This document shows positions 29,333-39,486 of a stretch of 64,000 bases of DNA, in pieces. The notes beneath the pieces are model-generated. The model did not search any database and was not told the DNA's origin. It saw only the letters and a list, made by a program, of their open reading frames with translations. Made by a program: the position numbers and the translations under genes. Position 1 is the first letter of the stretch, and every line of letters starts with the position of its first letter. Source of the stretch: an uncultured Methanomassiliicoccales archaeon (lineage in GTDB: Archaea > Thermoplasmatota > Thermoplasmata > Methanomassiliicoccales > UBA472). The stretch lies in contig OY968769.1 in the NCBI GenBank assembly GCA_963695345.1, forward strand, positions 2,240,001 through 2,304,000, read 5' to 3'.

Positions 29333-29529
29333 TTGGCGACCTTCCGATATCTTGCTCGGGAAAACAACTCAGCATCAAGTATTTATGGATGTTTTCGTTA
29401 ATATTGGCTTTGGGAACGTCTTTCCATTGCGCAGTATTTGATCCCAATCTCAGTGGAATGCTCTTTTCATGATTTTCAGTTCAATTAAAATACGCTCGGC
29501 TCAAATCCATCGGTCAAGGTCGATCCTCC

Positions 29530-30554
29530 ATGGCCGACATCATCACCGTCAAGAATCTCGTCAAGCTCTACGACCCGGACATTCGCGCGGTCGACGACAT
29601 ATCATTCGCCGTCGCCGAGGGCGAGATCTTCGGCTTCCTCGGACCGAACGGCGCGGGCAAGAGCACGGCCATCAAGATCCTGACCACCCTGCTCAAGAGG
29701 ACCTCCGGCGACGTCAGGATCAAAGGCTTCGACATTGAGGACGACGCTCGGGAGATACGCAACCTCATCGGCTACGCCTCGCAGGAGATCGGCATCGACA
29801 CTCGACCTCACCGGCCGGGAGAACATCTACCTGCAATGCCGCTTCTATCACATCCCCAAGGACAAGGCGCAGCAGAAGACGAACGAACTTCTCAGGACCG
29901 TCGGTCTGACCGACGTCGCCGACCGCCTCGCCGGCACCTACTCCGGCGGAATGAAACGCCGTCTCGATCTGGCCACCGCCCTGGTCTCCGACCCGGCGAT
30001 TCTGTTCCTGGACGAGCCGACGACCGGTCTCGACCCCCAATCGAGCGCGGGCGATCTGGGACCACATCCGCGACCTGAACCGCAAAGGGCACGACCATCT
30101 TCCTCACCACCCAGTACATGGAGGAGGCGGACCAGCTGGCTCACCGTCTCTGCATCATCGACAACGGCAAGATCGTCGCCGAGGGCGAACCGGGCAAGCT
30201 CAAGGGCGCAGATCGGCGCTGACATGATCAAGCTGGTGGTAAGGAACGGCGATGACCCGAAGCGTCATGAGCAGGGCGATGGAGATTGTGAGGCAGCTCC
30301 CGGGCGTCAAGGAGGTGCAGGACTGCGCCAAGGGAGGGATCGACTGCAGCGAAGGCGTCGTGATCTACGGCGCCGACGGTAGCAACCTGGTCCCGCTGAT
30401 CGTCCGCTCGCTCGACAGCGTACACATCGAGATCGACAACTTGGTGCTGGCCAAACCGTCACTGGACGACGTTTTCATCAGGTTCACCGGTAGGCAGCTC
30501 CGCACCGACCTGCAGAAGCTACCGCCGAAGGCCGGTTTCCACCGGAGGCGCTAG
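29530..30554 (+). CDS. ABC-2 exporter ATP-binding subunit (DrrA-like), frameshifted
   Basis: [36 protein letters not shown]. Confidence 0.9.
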
Positions 30555-30556
30555 CG

Positions 30557-31356
30557 ATGAGGATGCAGTTCGACTTTCCCGATGGAGGTCGCCGCCATCT
30601 TCAGCCGATGGATGCGCAAGTTGTTCCGCCGGCCGACTAACCTGACGTTCTCCATGATCCAGCCGCTGATCTGGTTCCTTCTTTTCACCCAGGCGTTCCA
30701 GGCAGTGGCCGACATTCCCGGCTTCCAGCAGATACACCGGAACGAGTTCCTACCTGACGTTCTTCTCCGCCGCGGTCATCGTGCAGACGGTGCTCACGTC
30801 CGCCCTGCAGTCCGGCCTGGGCATGGTGGACGATGTCGAGTCTGGCTACCTGGACAAGATGAGGGCGACCCCGGTCCGCCGGTCGTCGATCCTGCTGGGC
30901 AAGGTATTCTCCGATGGTTTCCGCATCGTCATGCAGGTGTCGATCATCATCGTGCTAGGGTACGCTGTTGGGCGTCAACGTAGTCACCGGACTTCCCGGC
31001 ATCGCCCTGATCCTGATCTTGGCCATGTTCTTCGGCATCGCCTGGTCCGGCATCTCCACGTTCGTGGCGCTGACCACCAGGAACTCGGAGTCGACACTGG
31101 TCATCTCGATCATGTTCGTGTTCCCGATGCTGTTCCTCTCTACAGCGGTCATGCCGAAGCAGTTCCTGGCACCCTGGGTGCAGATCTTCTCCAGCATATA
31201 ACCCGGTCTCATACGTGGCCGACGCGGTGCGCGGGCTTGATCATCCATGGCTATGATTGGACGCTCATCGGACAGGCCTTCCTGACCATATTGATCGTCG
31301 GGGCGATCACGCTCACTGCGACCACCATGATGTTCCGCAGGGCATTGGCGAAGTGA
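30557..31356 (+). CDS. ABC-2 permease (DrrB-like), frameshifted
   Basis: IQPLIWFLLF, GYLDKMRATPV, FPMLFLS; hydrophobic segments. Confidence 0.85.
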
Positions 31357-31458
31357 CAGTATTCTCGCATCATTGAGCTCAGGCGAATCGATCATCGTGC
31401 GAACGTTCAAAATCTGATGTCAGAACCACTATGGGAACACCGCCTCGTCACGGTACCG

Positions 31459-32049
31459 TCAGCGTTGGGAGACCTTGTAATGCATAAGGATCATTGAAAA
31501 GTAACTGATCACAAACATGACTATCGCGACATGCCATCCTAGAATGATCGGATGATGACGAGCTACTGTAAAGTAGCTAATGGGATTGGACAGGATAAGG
31601 AAACAAACGTAAGCCCATATCGACGTGCTGATCGACCATGCGACCAACGCCAGCATCCCAATGTAACTAAGCTTTCGCACCAGTGATTTTCCACTTGTAT
31701 GATAACCGTCCCCGCCACCACCCGGTCTCCTGAACACACTTCCGTGCCCTGAGTAATACCTGATCGCCGCATACAAGAGAAAGGAGACGAGACTGGCTGC
31801 TAGCATCAGCACTCCCGTAATATAGAATGTAAAAAAAGGGATGTAATCGATGAAAAGATCATTCAGATGCACAATTTCTGGATTGAATGTTATTCTCAAT
31901 GCAACATATATGAAGAACAATAGGCTGTACAACCCATTGGCGAAAACAAATGCCCCGGCTAACCGGAGCCATATGGACCCCTTTCGATCCACTGGTATAT
32001 TCTGAAATGTATCTTCCAACGAGCTTTCTCCCCAACTTCGCATTCGCAT
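31459..32049 (-). CDS. Hypothetical 4-TM membrane protein
   Basis: Four hydrophobic segments; AT-rich; no recognisable motif. Confidence 0.55.
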   Translation of the reverse strand: MRMRSWGESSLEDTFQNIPVDRKGSIWLRLAGAFVFANGLYSLLFFIYVALRITFNPEIVHLNDLFIDYIPFFTFYITGVLMLAASLVSFLLYAAIRYYSGHGSVFRRPGGGGDGYHTSGKSLVRKLSYIGMLALVAWSISTSIWAYVCFLILSNPISYFTVARHHPIILGWHVAIVMFVISYFSMILMHYKVSQR

Positions 32050-32301
32050 CTCAGTAATTCAAGCTTTCATTCAAATGAATGTAGGTCCCGATGTGATATT
32101 GTCGATCTCCACGCCATGATCTGGACGTTACGGCGGCAAGGAAGCGCCGATGGTTCCTGCAATGCTCACGTTATATTAACTTGGCGATATCATTTGTAAG
32201 TTTAATATCAATAATTGGTATATTTACGATATCGAAATGCCCATTCAGGACTTATTATGATGAATAATTTCTATATAATTTTGTTTATATCTCATCAATA
32301 G

Positions 32302-32745
32302 GTTTCCGACAGTGGGCGGACAAAACGGAATGGCCCACGTCGGGAGCATTGTTCGCAGTGCCGTCGTATCTGATTTCTGTCGGTACGATATGCAAAGCAT
32401 CTCGGATCGATCTTTGATCGGGATGTAAAGGCCGTGCGACCATCGTGCGATTCTTCGATCGCAGTATGGGAGAAACAAATCCTACGATGACCAAAGACTC
32501 GTTGGGTCGTCCCGTTCGATCTGCTTGAGCGTAACTTAGGGAATGAGGTTGAGCAGGCATGACAATAAGATATTCTGGGAAAAATGATAATCACGGGATG
32601 GGGGTTGGAACGGTCGCCCCGGTCGCAGCTAAACCCGCTGCCTTGGTCGATATGGCAATTCTGAACTGCAGTGCGAACAGAGCGAGGGACCGGGCCTGGA
32701 TTATTGGCGATCAGGCGATGAGAAAGGACTCCACCGGGAGCTTAG
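32302..32745 (+). ncRNA. Candidate structured leader/ncRNA upstream of beta-helix protein 2
   Basis: Consecutive hairpins with many G-U pairs: 32302-47, 32363-89, 32397-426, 32440-69, 32486-511, 32521-56, multibranch 32618-94, 32694-716; TATA-like TTTATAT at about 32284. Confidence 0.6.
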
Positions 32746-32770
32746 ATTCTCGAACCAGGGGCTGTCTTTA

Positions 32771-35719
32771 ATGTCATTTTATAGATTCAAGCGCAGGTCC
32801 CTGACATTATTGTCTTTCTTGTTTGTGGGAATGCTAATTGGTTCCTCCGTCCTGGTCGTCGCACCTGTCCAAGCGGTCACCGCCCCGGTCGGGGATGGGA
32901 CATCCGTTTCCGTGGCATACACCGTCTACAAGGATGCCACCGGTTATACCTGCGCCAAGAGCAGCGCTACCGGAGCAATCGATTTCAGGAGCACCAACTC
33001 GAGATTCGTCATTCAGAGCGCCATTGACAAGCTCTCGAGCGGCTACATCCTGATAAAGGCCGGTCAGTACGACATAACCCAGACCATCTATACCAACACG
33101 GTATCGATCATCGGCGAGGGAAACGCAACAGTTCTGGATGCCACGACCGCATGCAGCGGCGCGGTCATCCGAGTATCGAACAACTACTGGACAGTGGATG
33201 GAAGGTACCTCACCGCTCGTCCCAACGGGATAACCATCGGCAACATGGAGATCGATGGGAACCGGGCTTTACGCACCGGCGGACTGCAGGAAGGGGTCGG
33301 GTTCATAAGTGCCCTCAACAGCCGCATGGTGAGGATATACGTTCATGACCTGATCGGCGGGAACGGGCTCTACATGTCCAATTCCCAGTACTGCAGCGTC
33401 ACCGATTGCCAGGTCTTTAATGTCGGTGCCGATGCCGCCGCCCTATATGGATCGGGTATCGGTTTCGGAAGGGCATCGGGGATAAACGTCGCGAGCTCGT
33501 TCATCACGATCGACAATGTGCTGATCTCGAAGGTGTCGATGTCTTCGATCGACATGAAGCCGGCCAACAACGTGGTCATAACCAATTGCGTGTTCCTCGA
33601 GGCCTCGACCTGGAACGGTCATGCCACCCAGGTCATCTTGACGAATCCGACGGTCGGATATGCGGCCAACGACCGGATAACGGTAACCGGCAACATCGTC
33701 TATGGTGCGTTCGGTGAGTTCATGACGCTGAAGCCGAGCAACTACTCGGTCATCAGCAACAACCTCATCACGTACACCGCAAGCAATTTCTACGCGATAT
33801 ACTCGACCGGATCGCATGACAACAAGATCTCCGGAAACACCATCAAGACCGTTTCCAGGGAAGGCATCATCGGCTTGAACTGCAACTCGATACTCGTCGA
33901 GGGCAACACGATCACGGACACGGCCTCGTCCAAGAACGATTACGGCGTCCGTTTCTACACATCGGGCGGTTCGTCCCTCTATAACGTGATCAAGAGCAAC
34001 AAGATATCCGGTTTCAACTACGCCATAGTGGCAAATGGGCTGAGCGACCACACCACGGTCCAGTACAACACGATCAGCAACTGCAATGTGGGAATCCTGT
34101 TGAGCGGGTCATCCAACGTGAACTCATCCAATCAGGATTCTACCGTGACCATAACCGTTCCGCCGATAACTGATCCGGTCAGCAATGGCGGCGTAGCCTC
34201 CCTGATAATATTCCAGGAAGGAACGCAGACATGCGCGAAGGACGGGACCACCGGGGTGATAAAATACCGCGGGACCGCCACCTACGTGATCCAATCCGCC
34301 ATCGATAACGCGAAAGGCAAGATACTGCTGCTGCCAGGATCGTACAATCTGACCGCTGATATGAACGTCAAGAGGACAGCCGTCATCTCCGGCACATCGG
34401 CGGCATCGACTAAGCTCATTTCGAACGGCATCGCGTTCATCGCGATCACCGCGTCTAATGTCAAGATATCCGACCTATCGCTGTACGGCAACTGCGAGGT
34501 CCTGATCCGGAACAGCGAGGCCAAGGAGGTAACGAACATAACCTGCGAGCGCTTGGAATCATACCTCGGTAGTAGGACCGACGGCTCGTTCGTGGTCGCA
34601 TCCTCCTACGGCTCGGTCATCTCAAAGGTGGTGTTCCGGGACTGCAAGGCCTCCTCGTCGACGTATGGTTTCGTCAACACCGCATTCGGCACGCCCGGTC
34701 AGATCCGCGGCATAACCTTTGTGAACTGTCAGGCGATCGACTGCGGCCGGTATTCCCGCATCAATGAGTGGGTGGTGGGCTTTGACATGAGGGAGCTGGG
34801 ACAGGTCTATGATGCCCAATACATCAACTGTTACGCCTACGGGAACTGGGAATCCGGTTTCCATGTGGAACTGGCCGGATCGCTGGGCAACATCAAATTG
34901 ACCGGATGCCTGGCGGTGGAGAATGGCCGGAGAACGAGTCCCGACTATGGCACAGGGTTCATGATCGGGCAGGGGGTTTCCGCCAACAACTGTACCGCTG
35001 AGAACAACAAGAAGTCCGGATTCTACATCTGCAATAAGGGTGGAGAGACCCTCGTCGACACATGCACCGCCAAGGGATCGGGGCTAGGGTTCGGGGTGGT
35101 CTCAGGGTCCGGGAACAATGTCCTGAGGAACTGCAATGCGAACGGCGCTCGTACTGGCTATCTGTTTGTTGATTGTTATGTGGGCAAGACGTCGGCCAGC
35201 AATATCCGTGCCACCGATTGTGTGGAGGGCATCTCTTCCGGCAACTTCCGAAATCTGGCCATAAATGGGGCACAGATCGTAGGCAAACAGGTCGGAGCGG
35301 TCAACAACGTCCTGATGGGGTACGCTGGAGCTCCGAACTACAACTGCGTTCTGACTAACTTCGAGATCGTCTCAGCCGACCCGACGATCACAGCCGGGAT
35401 AACGTTGGGAGGCCAGGACATTTCCTTCAGCGGCGTTGTGAACGTGAACGCACCGTACGCCATCAACGTCGACTCGGGGAAGAACATCAGGATCGTTGGT
35501 GTCAGCGTATATGCTGGGAAGACCAATCAGGTCGGCATATACAACAACATCGGCACCGGCGTTTTTGTGGACCAGGCGAAACTGATGAACATCAAGGCCT
35601 ATGCCACGTCCTATGCGATCCAAGGCAGGAGCTCGACCTACTACATCACAGTTGGCAGCACCATCATTTCGCAAGGATGGTCAAAGGGCAACCTCAACAC
35701 CCGGAGCGCTGTCGCCTGA
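32771..35719 (+). CDS. Secreted protein with two tandem right-handed beta-helix modules (pectin-lyase/NosD-like)
   Basis: Signal peptide ending VAPVQA; duplicated module head TCAK..TG.I..R...VIQSAID; parallel beta-helix Asn ladders; no anchor. Confidence 0.85.
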   Translation: MSFYRFKRRSLTLLSFLFVGMLIGSSVLVVAPVQAVTAPVGDGTSVSVAYTVYKDATGYTCAKSSATGAIDFRSTNSRFVIQSAIDKLSSGYILIKAGQYDITQTIYTNTVSIIGEGNATVLDATTACSGAVIRVSNNYWTVDGRYLTARPNGITIGNMEIDGNRALRTGGLQEGVGFISALNSRMVRIYVHDLIGGNGLYMSNSQYCSVTDCQVFNVGADAAALYGSGIGFGRASGINVASSFITIDNVLISKVSMSSIDMKPANNVVITNCVFLEASTWNGHATQVILTNPTVGYAANDRITVTGNIVYGAFGEFMTLKPSNYSVISNNLITYTASNFYAIYSTGSHDNKISGNTIKTVSREGIIGLNCNSILVEGNTITDTASSKNDYGVRFYTSGGSSLYNVIKSNKISGFNYAIVANGLSDHTTVQYNTISNCNVGILLSGSSNVNSSNQDSTVTITVPPITDPVSNGGVASLIIFQEGTQTCAKDGTTGVIKYRGTATYVIQSAIDNAKGKILLLPGSYNLTADMNVKRTAVISGTSAASTKLISNGIAFIAITASNVKISDLSLYGNCEVLIRNSEAKEVTNITCERLESYLGSRTDGSFVVASSYGSVISKVVFRDCKASSSTYGFVNTAFGTPGQIRGITFVNCQAIDCGRYSRINEWVVGFDMRELGQVYDAQYINCYAYGNWESGFHVELAGSLGNIKLTGCLAVENGRRTSPDYGTGFMIGQGVSANNCTAENNKKSGFYICNKGGETLVDTCTAKGSGLGFGVVSGSGNNVLRNCNANGARTGYLFVDCYVGKTSASNIRATDCVEGISSGNFRNLAINGAQIVGKQVGAVNNVLMGYAGAPNYNCVLTNFEIVSADPTITAGITLGGQDISFSGVVNVNAPYAINVDSGKNIRIVGVSVYAGKTNQVGIYNNIGTGVFVDQAKLMNIKAYATSYAIQGRSSTYYITVGSTIISQGWSKGNLNTRSAVA

Positions 35720-36321
35720 TGATGCGGTCCGTCATCCAACCTCAGATCCTTTGAGGCAAACCCTTTCACTCCACATTTTTCCTAGTTCGATATGCGATGA
35801 CAAACGGGGTACTGGGTCGGGCCTCGATCAATGAAATGAGCGGGTGGATGCGTCATCCTAGAGAAGATGGATATCCGACCGGAGACATGCATTGGTCATT
35901 CGCTGCTGGTGTTCGGCACGTCCAGAGGTCAACATCTTTGCATAAGAAGGTCACCGGATTCTCCCTATGGTACGTTATCGGGATTGATAATCGGACCCCT
36001 CCCTAATTAAAGGAGGAAGGGACTCATGGCGACACCAATAAGGCTCTTCCTCGGACAACTGCAATTCTTGGAAATATTTTTGAATGATCAATTATAATCA
36101 CATGGTTAGATATTTAATTTAAAACGATTGTAAATGCTATTGATAATTTTTATCAGAAATTTTCTTAATATCTATTGAAAAATTACGAACGTTTGGAAAA
36201 AACGACTGCATTTTTTCATTATTGATAACCAGTCAACTTAGTTTATAACACAAAAATGAGGTCTAGTCTTATGGGCCGTGAGGAGATCGGTGAAAAACCA
36301 ATCATTATCAAGAAGCACCGA

Positions 36322-39300
36322 ATGAAGAACTACGCTGTAATTCTCGGATCCATGGTAATCGTTGGCATGATGTTGTCCGTCGCAGTGCAGACAACCAGTG
36401 CCATACCGAGCTATGATTACAGGATCAGCGGTTCTCAAGTCCTCGGACCCACTGGCACGGTAGTCTATTCCGGTTCTGACTTCTCCCGGGCACTGACCTG
36501 GGCCACCGGCCAGGCGAACAAGGTCACTTATGTGCCCGCGGGCAATTACGTCATTAACACGGCCATCTATCCAGCAGCCGGCATCACCCTGATCGGCGAT
36601 GGTGACGGACCCACCGGAACGGTGTTCAATTTCAACGATCCAGCCCTCACCGCCGAGCAATTCGTCGTGTACAATGTGAATGGCATAACGTTCAGCAATT
36701 TCAGGATGACAGGGTATGGCAGCATTGAGGTCTACGCCTCACGTCAGGATGTCACCTCGATAACCTTCGATCACGTGACCGGCTACCGCTGCGGCGGGAA
36801 CGACTACGTCTTCGGACTGGTCGCGGCCAGTCCCTACAAGGTAAATGGAGTGACATTCACCAACTGCCACGCAGAGGGTGCGGATGCCTTCGGTTTCCTC
36901 TTGACCGGTTCCGGTCTCAAGACCAATGTCGTCTTCACTGACTGCACCGCCAACTATTGCGGATACTATTCCACCCGTTTCAATGAATGGACGGCGGGAT
37001 TCGATGTGTGCGAGCTCGGCAGCGCCTCCAAGATAACGCTCACCAGGTGCACAGCCACATACAATTTGGAAGCAGGTTTCCACCTGGAGTACGCCCCATT
37101 GGAAACTGAGATACTGTTCGTCAATTGTGTTGCAAACTACAACGGACAGAAGGCAGCCGGTACGGTCAACAGCGACGGTACTGTTGGTACGCAGTATGGA
37201 GTAGGTTTCTTATTCAAACCCACAAATGTACCGAACATATCGTTCAGTGGATGCTCGGGTACGGGAAACACTCTGGGATTGAGCAGATTGGCTCCAGGAG
37301 CCTCGACTCTGTCCACCGTCCCCACGATCCATTGGAAACCGACGTTCACCAACAGCCCGGCCACCACCGGCAAGATCGGGGTCGCCTACTCGTACACCCC
37401 GACCGTCAATGAATCCTCAACACTATCATCGGTCGCCAAGCCGTCCTGGGCCTCCTGGTCCGGAACGAGCATGACCGGTACTCCGGCAACTGCCGGGTCC
37501 TATACCTTCTCTATAAAGGCAACGTCCAACTCAGGAACTTTGTCCAGCTGGAAGAACTGGACCGTGACCGTCCCGACCGTGGTCGTACCGAAGACCTGGG
37601 CGCCGACGTTCACCAACAGCCCGGCCACCACCGGCAAGATCGGGGTCGCCTACTCGTACACCCCTACGGTGAATGAGTCATCCACTCTCTCATCAGTCGC
37701 CAAGCCGTCCTGGGCCTCCTGGTCCGGTACTGTGATGTCCGGTAGTCCTCCAACAGCAGGATCTTATTCCTTCTCGATCAAGGCGGTATCGACCTCTGGA
37801 ACTTTGTCCAGCTGGAAGAACTGGACCGTGTCCGTTCCGACCGTAGTAACTCATTGGAAACCGACCTTCACCAACAGCCCGGCAACAACCGGCACGATTG
37901 GGAGTGTCTACTCGTACACCCCGACGGTGAACGAGTCATCCACTCTCTCGTTGGTCACCAAGCCGTCCTGGGCCTCCTGGTCCGGAACGACCATGACCGG
38001 CACCCCAACAACCGCCGGATCCTATACCTTCTCGATAAAGGCAACGTCCAACTCTGGAACTTTGTCCAGCTGGAAGAACTGGACCGTGACCGTCCCGACC
38101 GTGGTCGTACCGAAGACCTGGGCGCCGACGTTCACCAACAGCCCGGCCACGACTGGCAAGGTAGGGGTAGCATACTCGTATGCTCCGATGGTCAACGAAT
38201 CCTCAACCCTCTCTTTGGTCGCCAAGCCGTCCTGGGCCTCCTGGTCTGGTTCAGTGATGTCAGGGACTCCCGCTGTGGCAGGATCATCATCCTTCAGCGT
38301 TAAGGCGACGTCCAACTCCGGGACGCTCTCCAGCTGGAAGAACTGGACCGTGTCCGTCCCGACCGTGGTAGTACCTAAGACCTGGGCGTCAACGTTCACC
38401 AACAGTCCAAGCACTACTGGAATGATAGGGTCGGTATATTCGTACACCCCGACGGTAAACGAGTCGTCCACTCTCTCATCGGTCACCAAGCCGTCCTGGG
38501 CCTCCTGGTCCGGCACGGCAATGTCCGGTACGCCAACCACGGCAGGATCATATTCCTTCTCGGTCAAAGCTGTATCAACCTCTGGAACTTTGTCCAGCTG
38601 GAAGAACTGGACCGTGACCGTCCCGACCGTGGTCGTACCGAAGACCTGGGCGCCGACGTTCACCAACACCCCGGCCACCGTGGGAAAGATCGGATCAAGC
38701 TATTCTTATGTGCCAACGGTGAACGAGTCCTCAAGTCTGACGCTGGTATCAAAGCCGTCCTGGGCCTCCTGGTCCGGAACGACCATGACCGGCACCCCGA
38801 CAACCGCCGGGTCCTATGCCTTCTCGGTCAAGGCGACGTCCAACTCCGGGACGCTCACTAGCTGGAAGAACTGGACCGTGACCGTCCCGACCGTGGTAGT
38901 ACCTAAGACCTGGGCGCCGACCTTCACCAACAGTCCAGCCACTACCGGAAAGATCGGGGTCGTGTATTCATACACCCCGAAGGTCAACGAGTCCTCTTCT
39001 CTCCTGTTGGTTTCGAAGCCGTCCTGGGCCAAATGGTCCGGAACGACCATGACCGGTACGCCAACCACGGCAGGATCTTATTCCTTCAGCGTCAAGGCCA
39101 CATCGACCTCGGGAACACTCACCAGCGTAAAGAGCTGGACCGTGACCATTCCAGCCCTTGAGCCAGCCCACTGGGCGCCGAAGTTCATCAAGAACCCGGC
39201 CACGACAGGTAAGGTATGGGTCACCTACTCGTACACCCCGACGGTGAATGAGTCATCCACTCTCTCATCGGTCGCCAAGCCGTCCTGGGCCTCCTGGTCC

Positions 39301-39486
39301 GGCAAAGTGATCTCAGGAACGCCCACCGCCCCAGGATCTTATTCCTTCAGCGTCAAGGCCACATCGGTCGCCGGTGACCTGTCGAGCTGGCAGAACTGGA
39401 CCGTGACTATATCCTCCAGTCATTCGTCATGGAACAACTGGAACCACCATCATTACAACAACCATCTGATGGCACGGAAGGTCTGA
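36322..39486 (+). CDS. Secreted beta-helix protein with 8 tandem He_PIG-like Ig repeats and a His/Asn-rich tail
   Basis: Likely start MKNYAVILG (36322); N-domain paralogous to the 2573 gene; repeats W.PTFTNSPATTG...KPSWASWSG...GTP..AGSY.FS.KA. Confidence 0.88.
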   Translation: MKNYAVILGSMVIVGMMLSVAVQTTSAIPSYDYRISGSQVLGPTGTVVYSGSDFSRALTWATGQANKVTYVPAGNYVINTAIYPAAGITLIGDGDGPTGTVFNFNDPALTAEQFVVYNVNGITFSNFRMTGYGSIEVYASRQDVTSITFDHVTGYRCGGNDYVFGLVAASPYKVNGVTFTNCHAEGADAFGFLLTGSGLKTNVVFTDCTANYCGYYSTRFNEWTAGFDVCELGSASKITLTRCTATYNLEAGFHLEYAPLETEILFVNCVANYNGQKAAGTVNSDGTVGTQYGVGFLFKPTNVPNISFSGCSGTGNTLGLSRLAPGASTLSTVPTIHWKPTFTNSPATTGKIGVAYSYTPTVNESSTLSSVAKPSWASWSGTSMTGTPATAGSYTFSIKATSNSGTLSSWKNWTVTVPTVVVPKTWAPTFTNSPATTGKIGVAYSYTPTVNESSTLSSVAKPSWASWSGTVMSGSPPTAGSYSFSIKAVSTSGTLSSWKNWTVSVPTVVTHWKPTFTNSPATTGTIGSVYSYTPTVNESSTLSLVTKPSWASWSGTTMTGTPTTAGSYTFSIKATSNSGTLSSWKNWTVTVPTVVVPKTWAPTFTNSPATTGKVGVAYSYAPMVNESSTLSLVAKPSWASWSGSVMSGTPAVAGSSSFSVKATSNSGTLSSWKNWTVSVPTVVVPKTWASTFTNSPSTTGMIGSVYSYTPTVNESSTLSSVTKPSWASWSGTAMSGTPTTAGSYSFSVKAVSTSGTLSSWKNWTVTVPTVVVPKTWAPTFTNTPATVGKIGSSYSYVPTVNESSSLTLVSKPSWASWSGTTMTGTPTTAGSYAFSVKATSNSGTLTSWKNWTVTVPTVVVPKTWAPTFTNSPATTGKIGVVYSYTPKVNESSSLLLVSKPSWAKWSGTTMTGTPTTAGSYSFSVKATSTSGTLTSVKSWTVTIPALEPAHWAPKFIKNPATTGKVWVTYSYTPTVNESSTLSSVAKPSWASWSGKVISGTPTAPGSYSFSVKATSVAGDLSSWQNWTVTISSSHSSWNNWNHHHYNNHLMARKV
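37330..39414 (+). repeat. 8 x about 264-nt (about 88 aa) intragenic tandem repeats
   Basis: Recurrent aagccgtcctgggcctcctggtcc and agctggaagaactggaccgtg at about 260-nt spacing. Confidence 0.95.

Follow-up and report, generated by a model that had tools for sequence, protein, structure and literature searches.

Four groups of described systems come closest to the element treated here: riboswitch aptamers and other structured leaders at the 5′ end of mRNAs, upstream open reading frames (uORFs) or leader peptides coupled to a main gene, the N-terminal part of archaellins (archaeal flagellins), and the long 5′ untranslated regions (UTRs) of surface-layer (S-layer) or other highly expressed mRNAs. 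Long 5′ UTRs that stabilise the message are known from S-layer mRNAs of bacteria and from some mRNAs of methanogens, and to our knowledge few structured cis-regulatory RNAs of archaea have solid comparative support. The DNA analysed in this study is a stretch of 64,000 nucleotides (nt) from the genome of an uncultured Methanomassiliicoccales archaeon (assembly GCA_963695345.1, contig OY968769.1, positions 2,240,001 to 2,304,000), which is referred to as the window. It carries a leader of ~235 nt with a conserved RNA fold on the + strand (32311-32545), which is followed by a small ORF resembling the start of an archaellin gene and by the gene of a secreted beta-helix protein. Like riboswitch aptamers and structured 5′ leaders as classes, this leader lies 5′ of a single gene family and shows several helices joined at junctions, with covariation in the stems. 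As in coupled uORFs, the short ORF possesses its own Shine-Dalgarno (SD) sequence, and its stop adjoins or overlaps the main start codon (ATGA or TAATG). As in the long UTRs of S-layer mRNAs, a long leader with a putatively 5′-terminal stem precedes the gene of a secreted or surface protein. The cassette in the window consists of the following parts.

32170-32253, + strand: AT-rich upstream block (identity 0.64), candidate transcription-factor site
32254-32291, + strand: promoter block (identity 0.83) with an invariant 18-mer (32273-32290) and the TATA-like TTTATAT (32284-32290)
32311-32312, + strand: putative transcription start, 21-22 nt after the TATA-like box, where conservation resumes
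32311-32545, + strand: structured non-coding leader RNA, putative 5′ UTR, supported by a covariance model, by covariation in the family and by the lack of a frame open family-wide
32545-32548, + strand: SD-like GAGG, read from the sequence (family consensus GGAG, 8-13 nt before the ATG)
32559-32771, + strand: upstream small ORF of 70 codons, by homology derived from the first ~62 codons of an archaellin gene, with a TAA overlapping the next ATG (TAATG)
32771-35719, + strand: secreted protein of 982 amino acids (aa) with right-handed beta-helix repeats (Pfam Beta_helix, 2.4e-18; NosD, 7.9e-07)

Folding signal and coding status of the leader

The + strand between 32290 and 32790 folded with a z-score of -2.47, and none of 100 dinucleotide shuffles was equally stable, whereas the - strand of the same segment reached z +0.29 and was equalled by 61 of 100 shuffles. 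This signal was located in 32311-32558 (z -2.45; 3 of 200 shuffles); the adjoining 32559-32790 had no folding signal (z -0.51; 59 of 200 shuffles). In the pairs of the family alignment described below, 97 cells hold G-U and 39 hold A-C, and this excess of G-U points to the + strand as the RNA strand.

All frames of the leader contain a stop codon in 14 of 16 copies, with the window's own copy (W) and L017 keeping stop-free frames on the minus strand. A conserved open frame was not found across the family, nor a long + strand ORF in the leader, even if TAG was read through.

A preliminary description of this region had regarded it as a + strand RNA rather than a DNA palindrome and had not recognised a known family. 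The first statement agrees with the strand-specific folding and the G-U excess given above. The second was confirmed with Rfam 15: a search of 31000-34000 at E ≤ 10 gave four matches, all far below the gathering threshold and none over the body of the leader, and a search of five other loci bearing copies at E ≤ 1 gave one match, outside the leader and likewise below gathering. Among the checks named in the same description were folding energy against dinucleotide shuffles and conservation in relatives. The former came out in favour of a structured RNA with the + strand values above, the latter through compensatory changes in paralogues and sister genomes.

Copies and distribution

With 32200-32790 as query, nhmmer detected four further full-length copies within this genome of 2.56 Mb (E 1.4e-51 to 6.7e-28), so that five copies of the family sit in the genome of the window; partial matches also occurred at the starts of archaellin genes. 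Altogether, the family comprises 18 distinct full-length copies and one 5′-truncated copy. Their sources are six genomes belonging to one genus and three contigs from metagenomes; one of these contigs duplicates a genome copy. In all 16 copies examined in this respect, the leader is located directly 5′ of a small ORF and a beta-helix gene.

BLAST across 60 other genomes showed the element in six of the seven that belong to the genus of the window and in none of the 53 from other genera. A covariance model (R1; 263 positions, 68 pairs), which was built in this analysis from the family, detected full-length copies in 5 of 7 other members of the genus and no copies in 39 genomes from seven other genera of the family-rank group. 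Among 151 sampled genomes of the class, R1 gave just two weak matches (E 1.7e-4 and 8.3e-4 per genome); both were rejected, one lying inside a methionyl-tRNA-synthetase-like ORF and the other in an unrelated locus. Another full-length copy (235.9 bits) is carried by a record of an uncultured Methanomassiliicoccales archaeon, which agrees with the order that the preliminary description had suggested for relatives. In the 64-kb window, the copy described here is the sole match of the model (150.4 bits, E 2e-52). Among the genomes searched, the leader and its cassette are thus confined to one genus of the Methanomassiliicoccales.

Pattern-based scans were also applied. A scan of genome contigs with a sequence pattern was too loose, giving at least 120 matches, mostly bacterial ones by chance; the two that were checked as candidates, L093 and L101, are true copies. 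The corresponding scan of metagenomes reported 85 stretches, and 80 loci from it were examined by the covariance model. Three of these are leaders, which yielded two new copies (one of them 5′-truncated) and one duplicate. The other 77 loci (within L169-L248) were not matched by the model and were treated as chance matches to one repeat family; 14 of them were inspected and proved to be a multi-copy stretch of ~40% G+C that lacks convincing ORFs and stems from a few related samples.

Two degenerate partial copies of the P5-P8 domain (helices are named in the next section) were observed at L042 (G005:C4:28010-28104) and L043 (G007:C1:650718-650810), 2.1-2.4 kb downstream of full-length leader copies. 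Their position suggests decayed tandem cassettes.

Family fold and covariation

The fold of the family comprises nine nested helices, including the two long-range closing helices P10 and P5. From the 5′ end, P1 encloses P2 and is followed by P3; P10 then encloses P4 and a three-way domain, in which P5 is the closing helix and P6 and P7-P8 lie inside. The sequences of junctions and loops are strongly conserved across the family, and the loop of P4 contains a conserved U-run.

These helices were derived by eye from a MAFFT alignment of 16 copies (A2; 75 pairs), which had been made blind to structure, and were then counted on it. In this alignment 85.2% of 1158 cells pair, in comparison to 36-45% if the partners are slid by 1-3 columns. 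Compensatory changes on both sides were found in 32 of the 75 pairs, against 12-17 in the slid controls and 16.5 in shuffles, and none of 500 shuffles reached 32. P10 is supported also on its own, with 4 of its 6 pairs compensatory, a value that one of 500 shuffles reached. In a typical copy (L009), the unconstrained minimum free energy (MFE) structure reproduces P1-P8 and P10 (z -3.56; 0 of 200 shuffles).

The counts have to be read with two reservations: the structure was derived from the same sequences on which it was counted and so has an advantage over the slid controls, and the copies are paralogues and close kin and not independent, so that the shuffle counts are not probabilities. A real and selected RNA structure in a 5′ UTR is considered very likely.

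Beside the nested helices, the consensus UCUUCC of the P6 loop is complementary to GGAAGA in the linker of P1 and P2, and both segments might form a pseudoknot. For this pairing, copies C and D supply two compensatory events.

The copy in the window

The helices of the family fold map to the window copy as follows.

32316-21/32351-56, + strand: helix P1
32333-38/32342-47, + strand: helix P2
32361-68/32376-83, + strand: helix P3
32387-92/32530-35, + strand: long-range helix P10
32398-408/32416-25, + strand: helix P4
32429-34/32517-22, + strand: long-range helix P5
32447-51/32458-62, + strand: helix P6
32472-74/32510-12, + strand: helix P7 (weak)
32482-90/32499-506, + strand: helix P8
32326-29 with 32454-57, + strand: possible pseudoknot

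With 150.4 bits, this copy is the lowest-scoring one in its genome, where the others reach 195-239 bits. Because it has diverged from the family consensus, the stems that the preliminary description had read from its letters had a mixed outcome. Two of them, 32397-426 and 32446-63, coincide with P4 and P6. Those at 32302-47, 32363-89 and 32486-511 represent registers peculiar to this copy, which differ from or compete with the covarying P1/P2, P3 and P8, and the 5′ arm of the first is located upstream of the putative transcription start. Three further stems (32521-56, 32618-94 and 32694-716) are absent from the family model, and RNAalifold gave no common structure in the ORF part. The extent of the RNA also had to be revised: instead of an element of ~460 nt without a credible ORF, the leader ends after about half of this length, and the 3′ half is the conserved small ORF with its own SD. 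The proposed structural switch between 32508-15 and 32593-600 is favourable in the window copy (-11.2 kcal/mol, z -1.68), but shows no conservation in the family (mean z -0.05, 15 copies). What remains of the idea of an undescribed archaeal leader is the structured + strand leader 5′ of the beta-helix gene; as neither a conserved terminator nor a conserved platform sequestering the SD was found, its assignment as a riboswitch or attenuator is tentative.

Promoter and putative transcription start

Conservation along the cassette is uneven. The mean pairwise identity of 15 copies is 0.28 far upstream, rises to the values of the upstream block (0.64) and the promoter block (0.83), drops to 0.51 in the spacer between TATA-like box and start, and amounts to 0.63 in the leader and 0.56 in the small ORF. 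All five cassettes of the genome carry the 18-mer of 32273-32290 without a mismatch, and the single other genomic site has 3 mismatches. The TATA-like box, which had been pointed out before, lies inside this 18-mer and is therefore shared by all five copies.

In the sister genome G004, the upstream block and promoter are also present at loci without the leader. At two of them (L016 and L021) an ORF with a canonical signal peptide begins at a homologous ATGAG in the position where the leader would start, an arrangement consistent with a leaderless mRNA. These genes provide indirect support for a transcription start around 32311-32312 in the window. The first ~50 nt of the G004 ORF are homologous to P1-P2 of the leader. 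The proteins encoded behind this promoter at L016 and L021 are secreted proteins of 380-478 aa, apparently leaderless. At another locus of G004 (L012), the shared upstream block and promoter are followed by an untranslated stretch of ~110 nt and by the gene of a winged-helix-like protein of 108 aa; tblastn gave no match of this protein in the genome of the window.

The small upstream ORF

In 14 of 16 copies the small ORF stays open over 64-90 codons. The exceptions are L018 with 51 codons and L010, which is frameshifted after codon 6 with the remainder open. Insertions and deletions are in frame, third codon positions vary most, and the ratio of nonsynonymous to synonymous changes (pN/pS) is 0.64 in frame in comparison to 0.98 and 0.88 out of frame. 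In public data, gene callers have predicted the small ORF in 38 protein clusters of 58-117 aa, all unnamed or annotated as hypothetical and none with a Pfam domain. Their common motif is approximately LSVLN..ANKARD.AWKIGDQAMKK, with a C-terminal RGC in addition. The RGC codons of the small ORF contain the SD of the next gene. In each of the 15 copies that allowed a judgement, the signal-peptide ORF has a candidate start at a distance of -10 to +7 nt from where the small ORF stops. Such an overlap of stop and start is the arrangement expected for coupling by termination and reinitiation. Translation of the small ORF and its coupling to the main ORF are considered likely.

RNAalifold on the codon alignment showed no common structure inside the small ORF. 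A local hairpin that is visible by eye in many copies around codons ~22-31 was not counted, because archaellin genes carry a similar hairpin of Ala and Val codons. An AlphaFold model of the small protein is of low confidence (mean pLDDT, the predicted local distance difference test, 59.4) and contains one helix (residues 25-62).

Relation of the small ORF to archaellins

A profile of 14 small ORFs matched the genome's own archaellin with E 4.7e-20 in a two-sequence search, and in BLASTP against the archaellins of the genome all 14 small ORFs matched at E ≤ 2.3e-4. The alignment covers the first 62-69 residues of these archaellins (199-203 aa), and the DNA homology to archaellin genes starts at the SD and stops after ~190 nt. 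This indicates that the small ORF arose from the beginning of an archaellin gene. It has kept the SD and start codon, a charged N-terminus resembling a signal peptide and the segment ANK..R...GDQA. In contrast to the archaellins, it encodes only 64-90 aa and no globular domain, its hydrophobic helix is shortened and broken by Glu, Pro or Arg, and it has conserved residues of its own which are absent from archaellins, for example a near-invariant Trp. None of three small ORFs tested had a Pfam match, the archaellin family (Arch_flagellin) included, and by family membership the small ORF is not an archaellin. A leader upstream of archaellin genes was not found by nhmmer at E ≤ 10.

The genome contains four tandem archaellin genes of 203 aa each (G000:C1 ~687,500-691,850, - strand), spaced by ~390-760 nt, and a fifth of 199 aa at 542,970-543,566. 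Their upstream regions have a conserved sequence of their own, including a short hairpin (CCCGG-ATT-CCGGG), which is unrelated to the leader.

Proposed function and rival explanations

The order of the cassette is an upstream block with the promoter, a folded putative 5′ UTR of ~235 nt, an archaellin-derived uORF of ~70 codons and the beta-helix gene. Transcription would start at about 32311, and the leader would fold from its extreme 5′ end (P1) into a compact body, closed by the long-range helices P10 and P5 and ending 15-20 nt before the unpaired SD of the small ORF. A trans-acting factor, either a metabolite or a protein, might recognise the conserved junctions and loops and thereby alter initiation at the small ORF or the lifetime of the mRNA. 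Ribosomes ending the small ORF could start anew on the beta-helix gene, whose start codon overlaps the stop, and in this way the leader would set the output of the surface protein. Taken as a whole, including its regulatory role, this reading of the leader as a cis-acting sensor or regulatory 5′ UTR that feeds a coupled uORF is held to be somewhat more probable than its opposite. Whether the leader responds to a signal, like a riboswitch or a protein-binding RNA, or is a constitutive element is an evenly balanced question, and the context of the beta-helix gene suggests no obvious ligand.

Several observations weigh against this proposal. A conserved expression platform, that is, an alternative helix hiding the SD or a terminator, was not found by simple duplex tests. 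In these tests, pairing of the SD with the 3′ strand of P5 was no better than in shuffles (mean z -0.50, 16 copies) and was strong in the window copy only (-11.5 kcal/mol). Similarly, the pairing of the 5′ strand of P4a with codons 9-18 of the small ORF is unconserved (mean z -0.59, 15 copies). The accessibility of the SD, predicted from single sequences, ranged from 0.08 to 0.94 among the copies. The pseudoknot alone is not significant, as 134 of 500 shuffles reach its two compensatory pairs. The window copy itself is an outlier and the most diverged one in its genome: 50 of the 68 model pairs can form, its fold constrained to the consensus has -45.6 kcal/mol in comparison to an MFE of -90.5, and just 12 of the 50 consensus pairs are present in this MFE structure. 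Furthermore, the peptide of the small ORF is weakly constrained overall, as the pN/pS of 0.64 shows, and among the five cassettes of the genome, two (C and D) have interrupted downstream genes. Finally, the status of the leader as a 5′ UTR, as well as its transcription start, is what we infer from the sequence.

Because no conserved expression platform was found, a constitutive stabiliser of the mRNA or enhancer of translation is the main rival. According to this explanation, the fold, beginning 3-5 nt from the 5′ end of the RNA, would guard a highly expressed surface-protein mRNA against decay that depends on this end and present an open ribosome-binding site, without any sensing. The covarying P1 begins at nucleotides 4-6 of the putative transcript, the SD and AUG are located outside the conserved helices, and the leaderless genes of G004 also begin with the first ~50 nt (P1-P2); as no conserved switch helix was found either, this would fit such a role. 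However, nine covarying helices, two long-range closures and conserved junctions and loops exceed what is needed for the protection of an end, and the leaderless G004 genes indicate that the promoter works without the leader. We consider the constitutive function rather unlikely. A stand-alone or trans-acting non-coding RNA (ncRNA) that is made from the strong promoter and ends before the small ORF, the latter then being a separate small-protein gene, is much less probable. The size and complexity of the leader resemble those of large structured ncRNAs, and the conserved U-run in the P4 loop could be of relevance here, as oligo-U can end archaeal transcription. Against this, neither a T-run nor another terminator-like feature was found between P10 and the SD, the leader is always directly 5′ of the small ORF and the beta-helix gene (16/16), and the sole isolated pieces are the two degenerate partial copies mentioned above.

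The homology of the first ~50 nt to the start of the G004 coding sequence, the archaellin fragment in the small ORF and the decay of the window copy relative to the consensus could also be explained by evolutionary debris, namely a mosaic of 5′ fragments of a leaderless secreted-protein gene and an archaellin gene without any function as RNA. This is very improbable in view of the compensatory changes, which maintain the helices across copies that are just ~63% identical, and of the asymmetry between G-U and A-C, which points to a single strand. In addition, the small ORF has been kept open, with in-frame indels and with conserved residues, such as the near-invariant Trp, that archaellins do not have. 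The occurrence of several copies in one genome might finally recall a mobile element similar to a miniature inverted-repeat transposable element (MITE), or DNA palindromes bound by a protein. Terminal or bounding inverted repeats were not found in 32050-32900, and there is no MITE-like scatter: all copies are in an equivalent position 5′ of homologous genes, and with ~63% identity they are far from near-identical. For palindromes acting as DNA, the tolerance of G-U pairs on one strand only is an argument to the contrary. The probability of either is close to negligible.

A more far-reaching version of the proposal, in which the leader is an archaeal-specific riboswitch-like or protein-sensing RNA that gates the archaellin-derived peptide while coupling sets the output of the adhesin-like beta-helix protein, is speculative and, in our judgement, unlikely. 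Since the initiation region and N-terminus of an archaellin were kept, a factor shared with the synthesis or processing of archaellins could act on the small ORF. If this were true, a cross-talk between motility and surface attachment would be built into the cassette.

Downstream genes and neighbourhood

The N-terminus of the beta-helix protein resembles a signal peptide and is homologous in other cassettes. In cassette C (G000:C1 ~2,210,800-2,213,500), the beta-helix gene is split into ORFs of 213 and 264 aa, and in cassette D (~2,228,000-2,230,900), the signal-peptide ORF ends after 33 codons and is followed by an ORF of 421 aa in another frame. These interrupted genes could be pseudogenes or the result of indels in the assembly.

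A second large surface protein of 1076 aa, with beta-helix and Ig-like domains (FlgD_ig, He_PIG), is encoded in the window at 35950-39486. Its gene is preceded by a spacer of 33% G+C, and no copy of the leader is present there. On the other side of the cassette, at 29469-31356, the domains ABC_tran and ABC2_membrane are divided among several short ORFs that overlap. The splitting of this transporter of the ATP-binding cassette (ABC) type may reflect frameshifts, which bears on the trust that can be placed in interrupted genes of this assembly.

Comparison with known systems

The leader shares with riboswitch aptamers, beside the features named at the outset, conserved junctions and loops and a possible pseudoknot between a loop and a linker. 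It differs from them in having no Rfam match, and neither a conserved terminator nor a conserved helix sequestering the SD was found. Moreover, the genomes searched place the leader in a single archaeal genus, and it feeds the main gene not directly but by way of a small ORF. From the long 5′ UTRs of S-layer mRNAs it is distinguished by a fold that is far more elaborate and covaries, and by the inclusion of the small ORF.

The likeness to coupled uORFs and leader peptides extends to the SD of the main gene, which is located within the last codons of the small ORF. In contrast to these systems, the peptide is a domesticated fragment of a structural protein with 64-90 residues and not a short run of regulatory codons, and no signal for stalling or attenuation was identified in the small ORF. 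The cassette shows that the 5′ fragment of an archaellin gene can be reused as a conserved and probably coupled uORF.

A full-text literature search on the archaellin of Methanomassiliicoccus, on riboswitches in Methanomassiliicoccales and on archaeal long 5′ UTRs and surface proteins gave nothing relevant. With its large fold, clear gene association and several paralogues per genome, the leader is a good candidate for an orphan regulatory RNA of archaea. A large archaeal leader with covariation, combined with a small ORF of archaellin origin and an invariant promoter that also serves leaderless genes, appears to be undescribed. In one and the same genus this promoter precedes genes with the long leader as well as leaderless ones, which offers a natural comparison of what the leader contributes.

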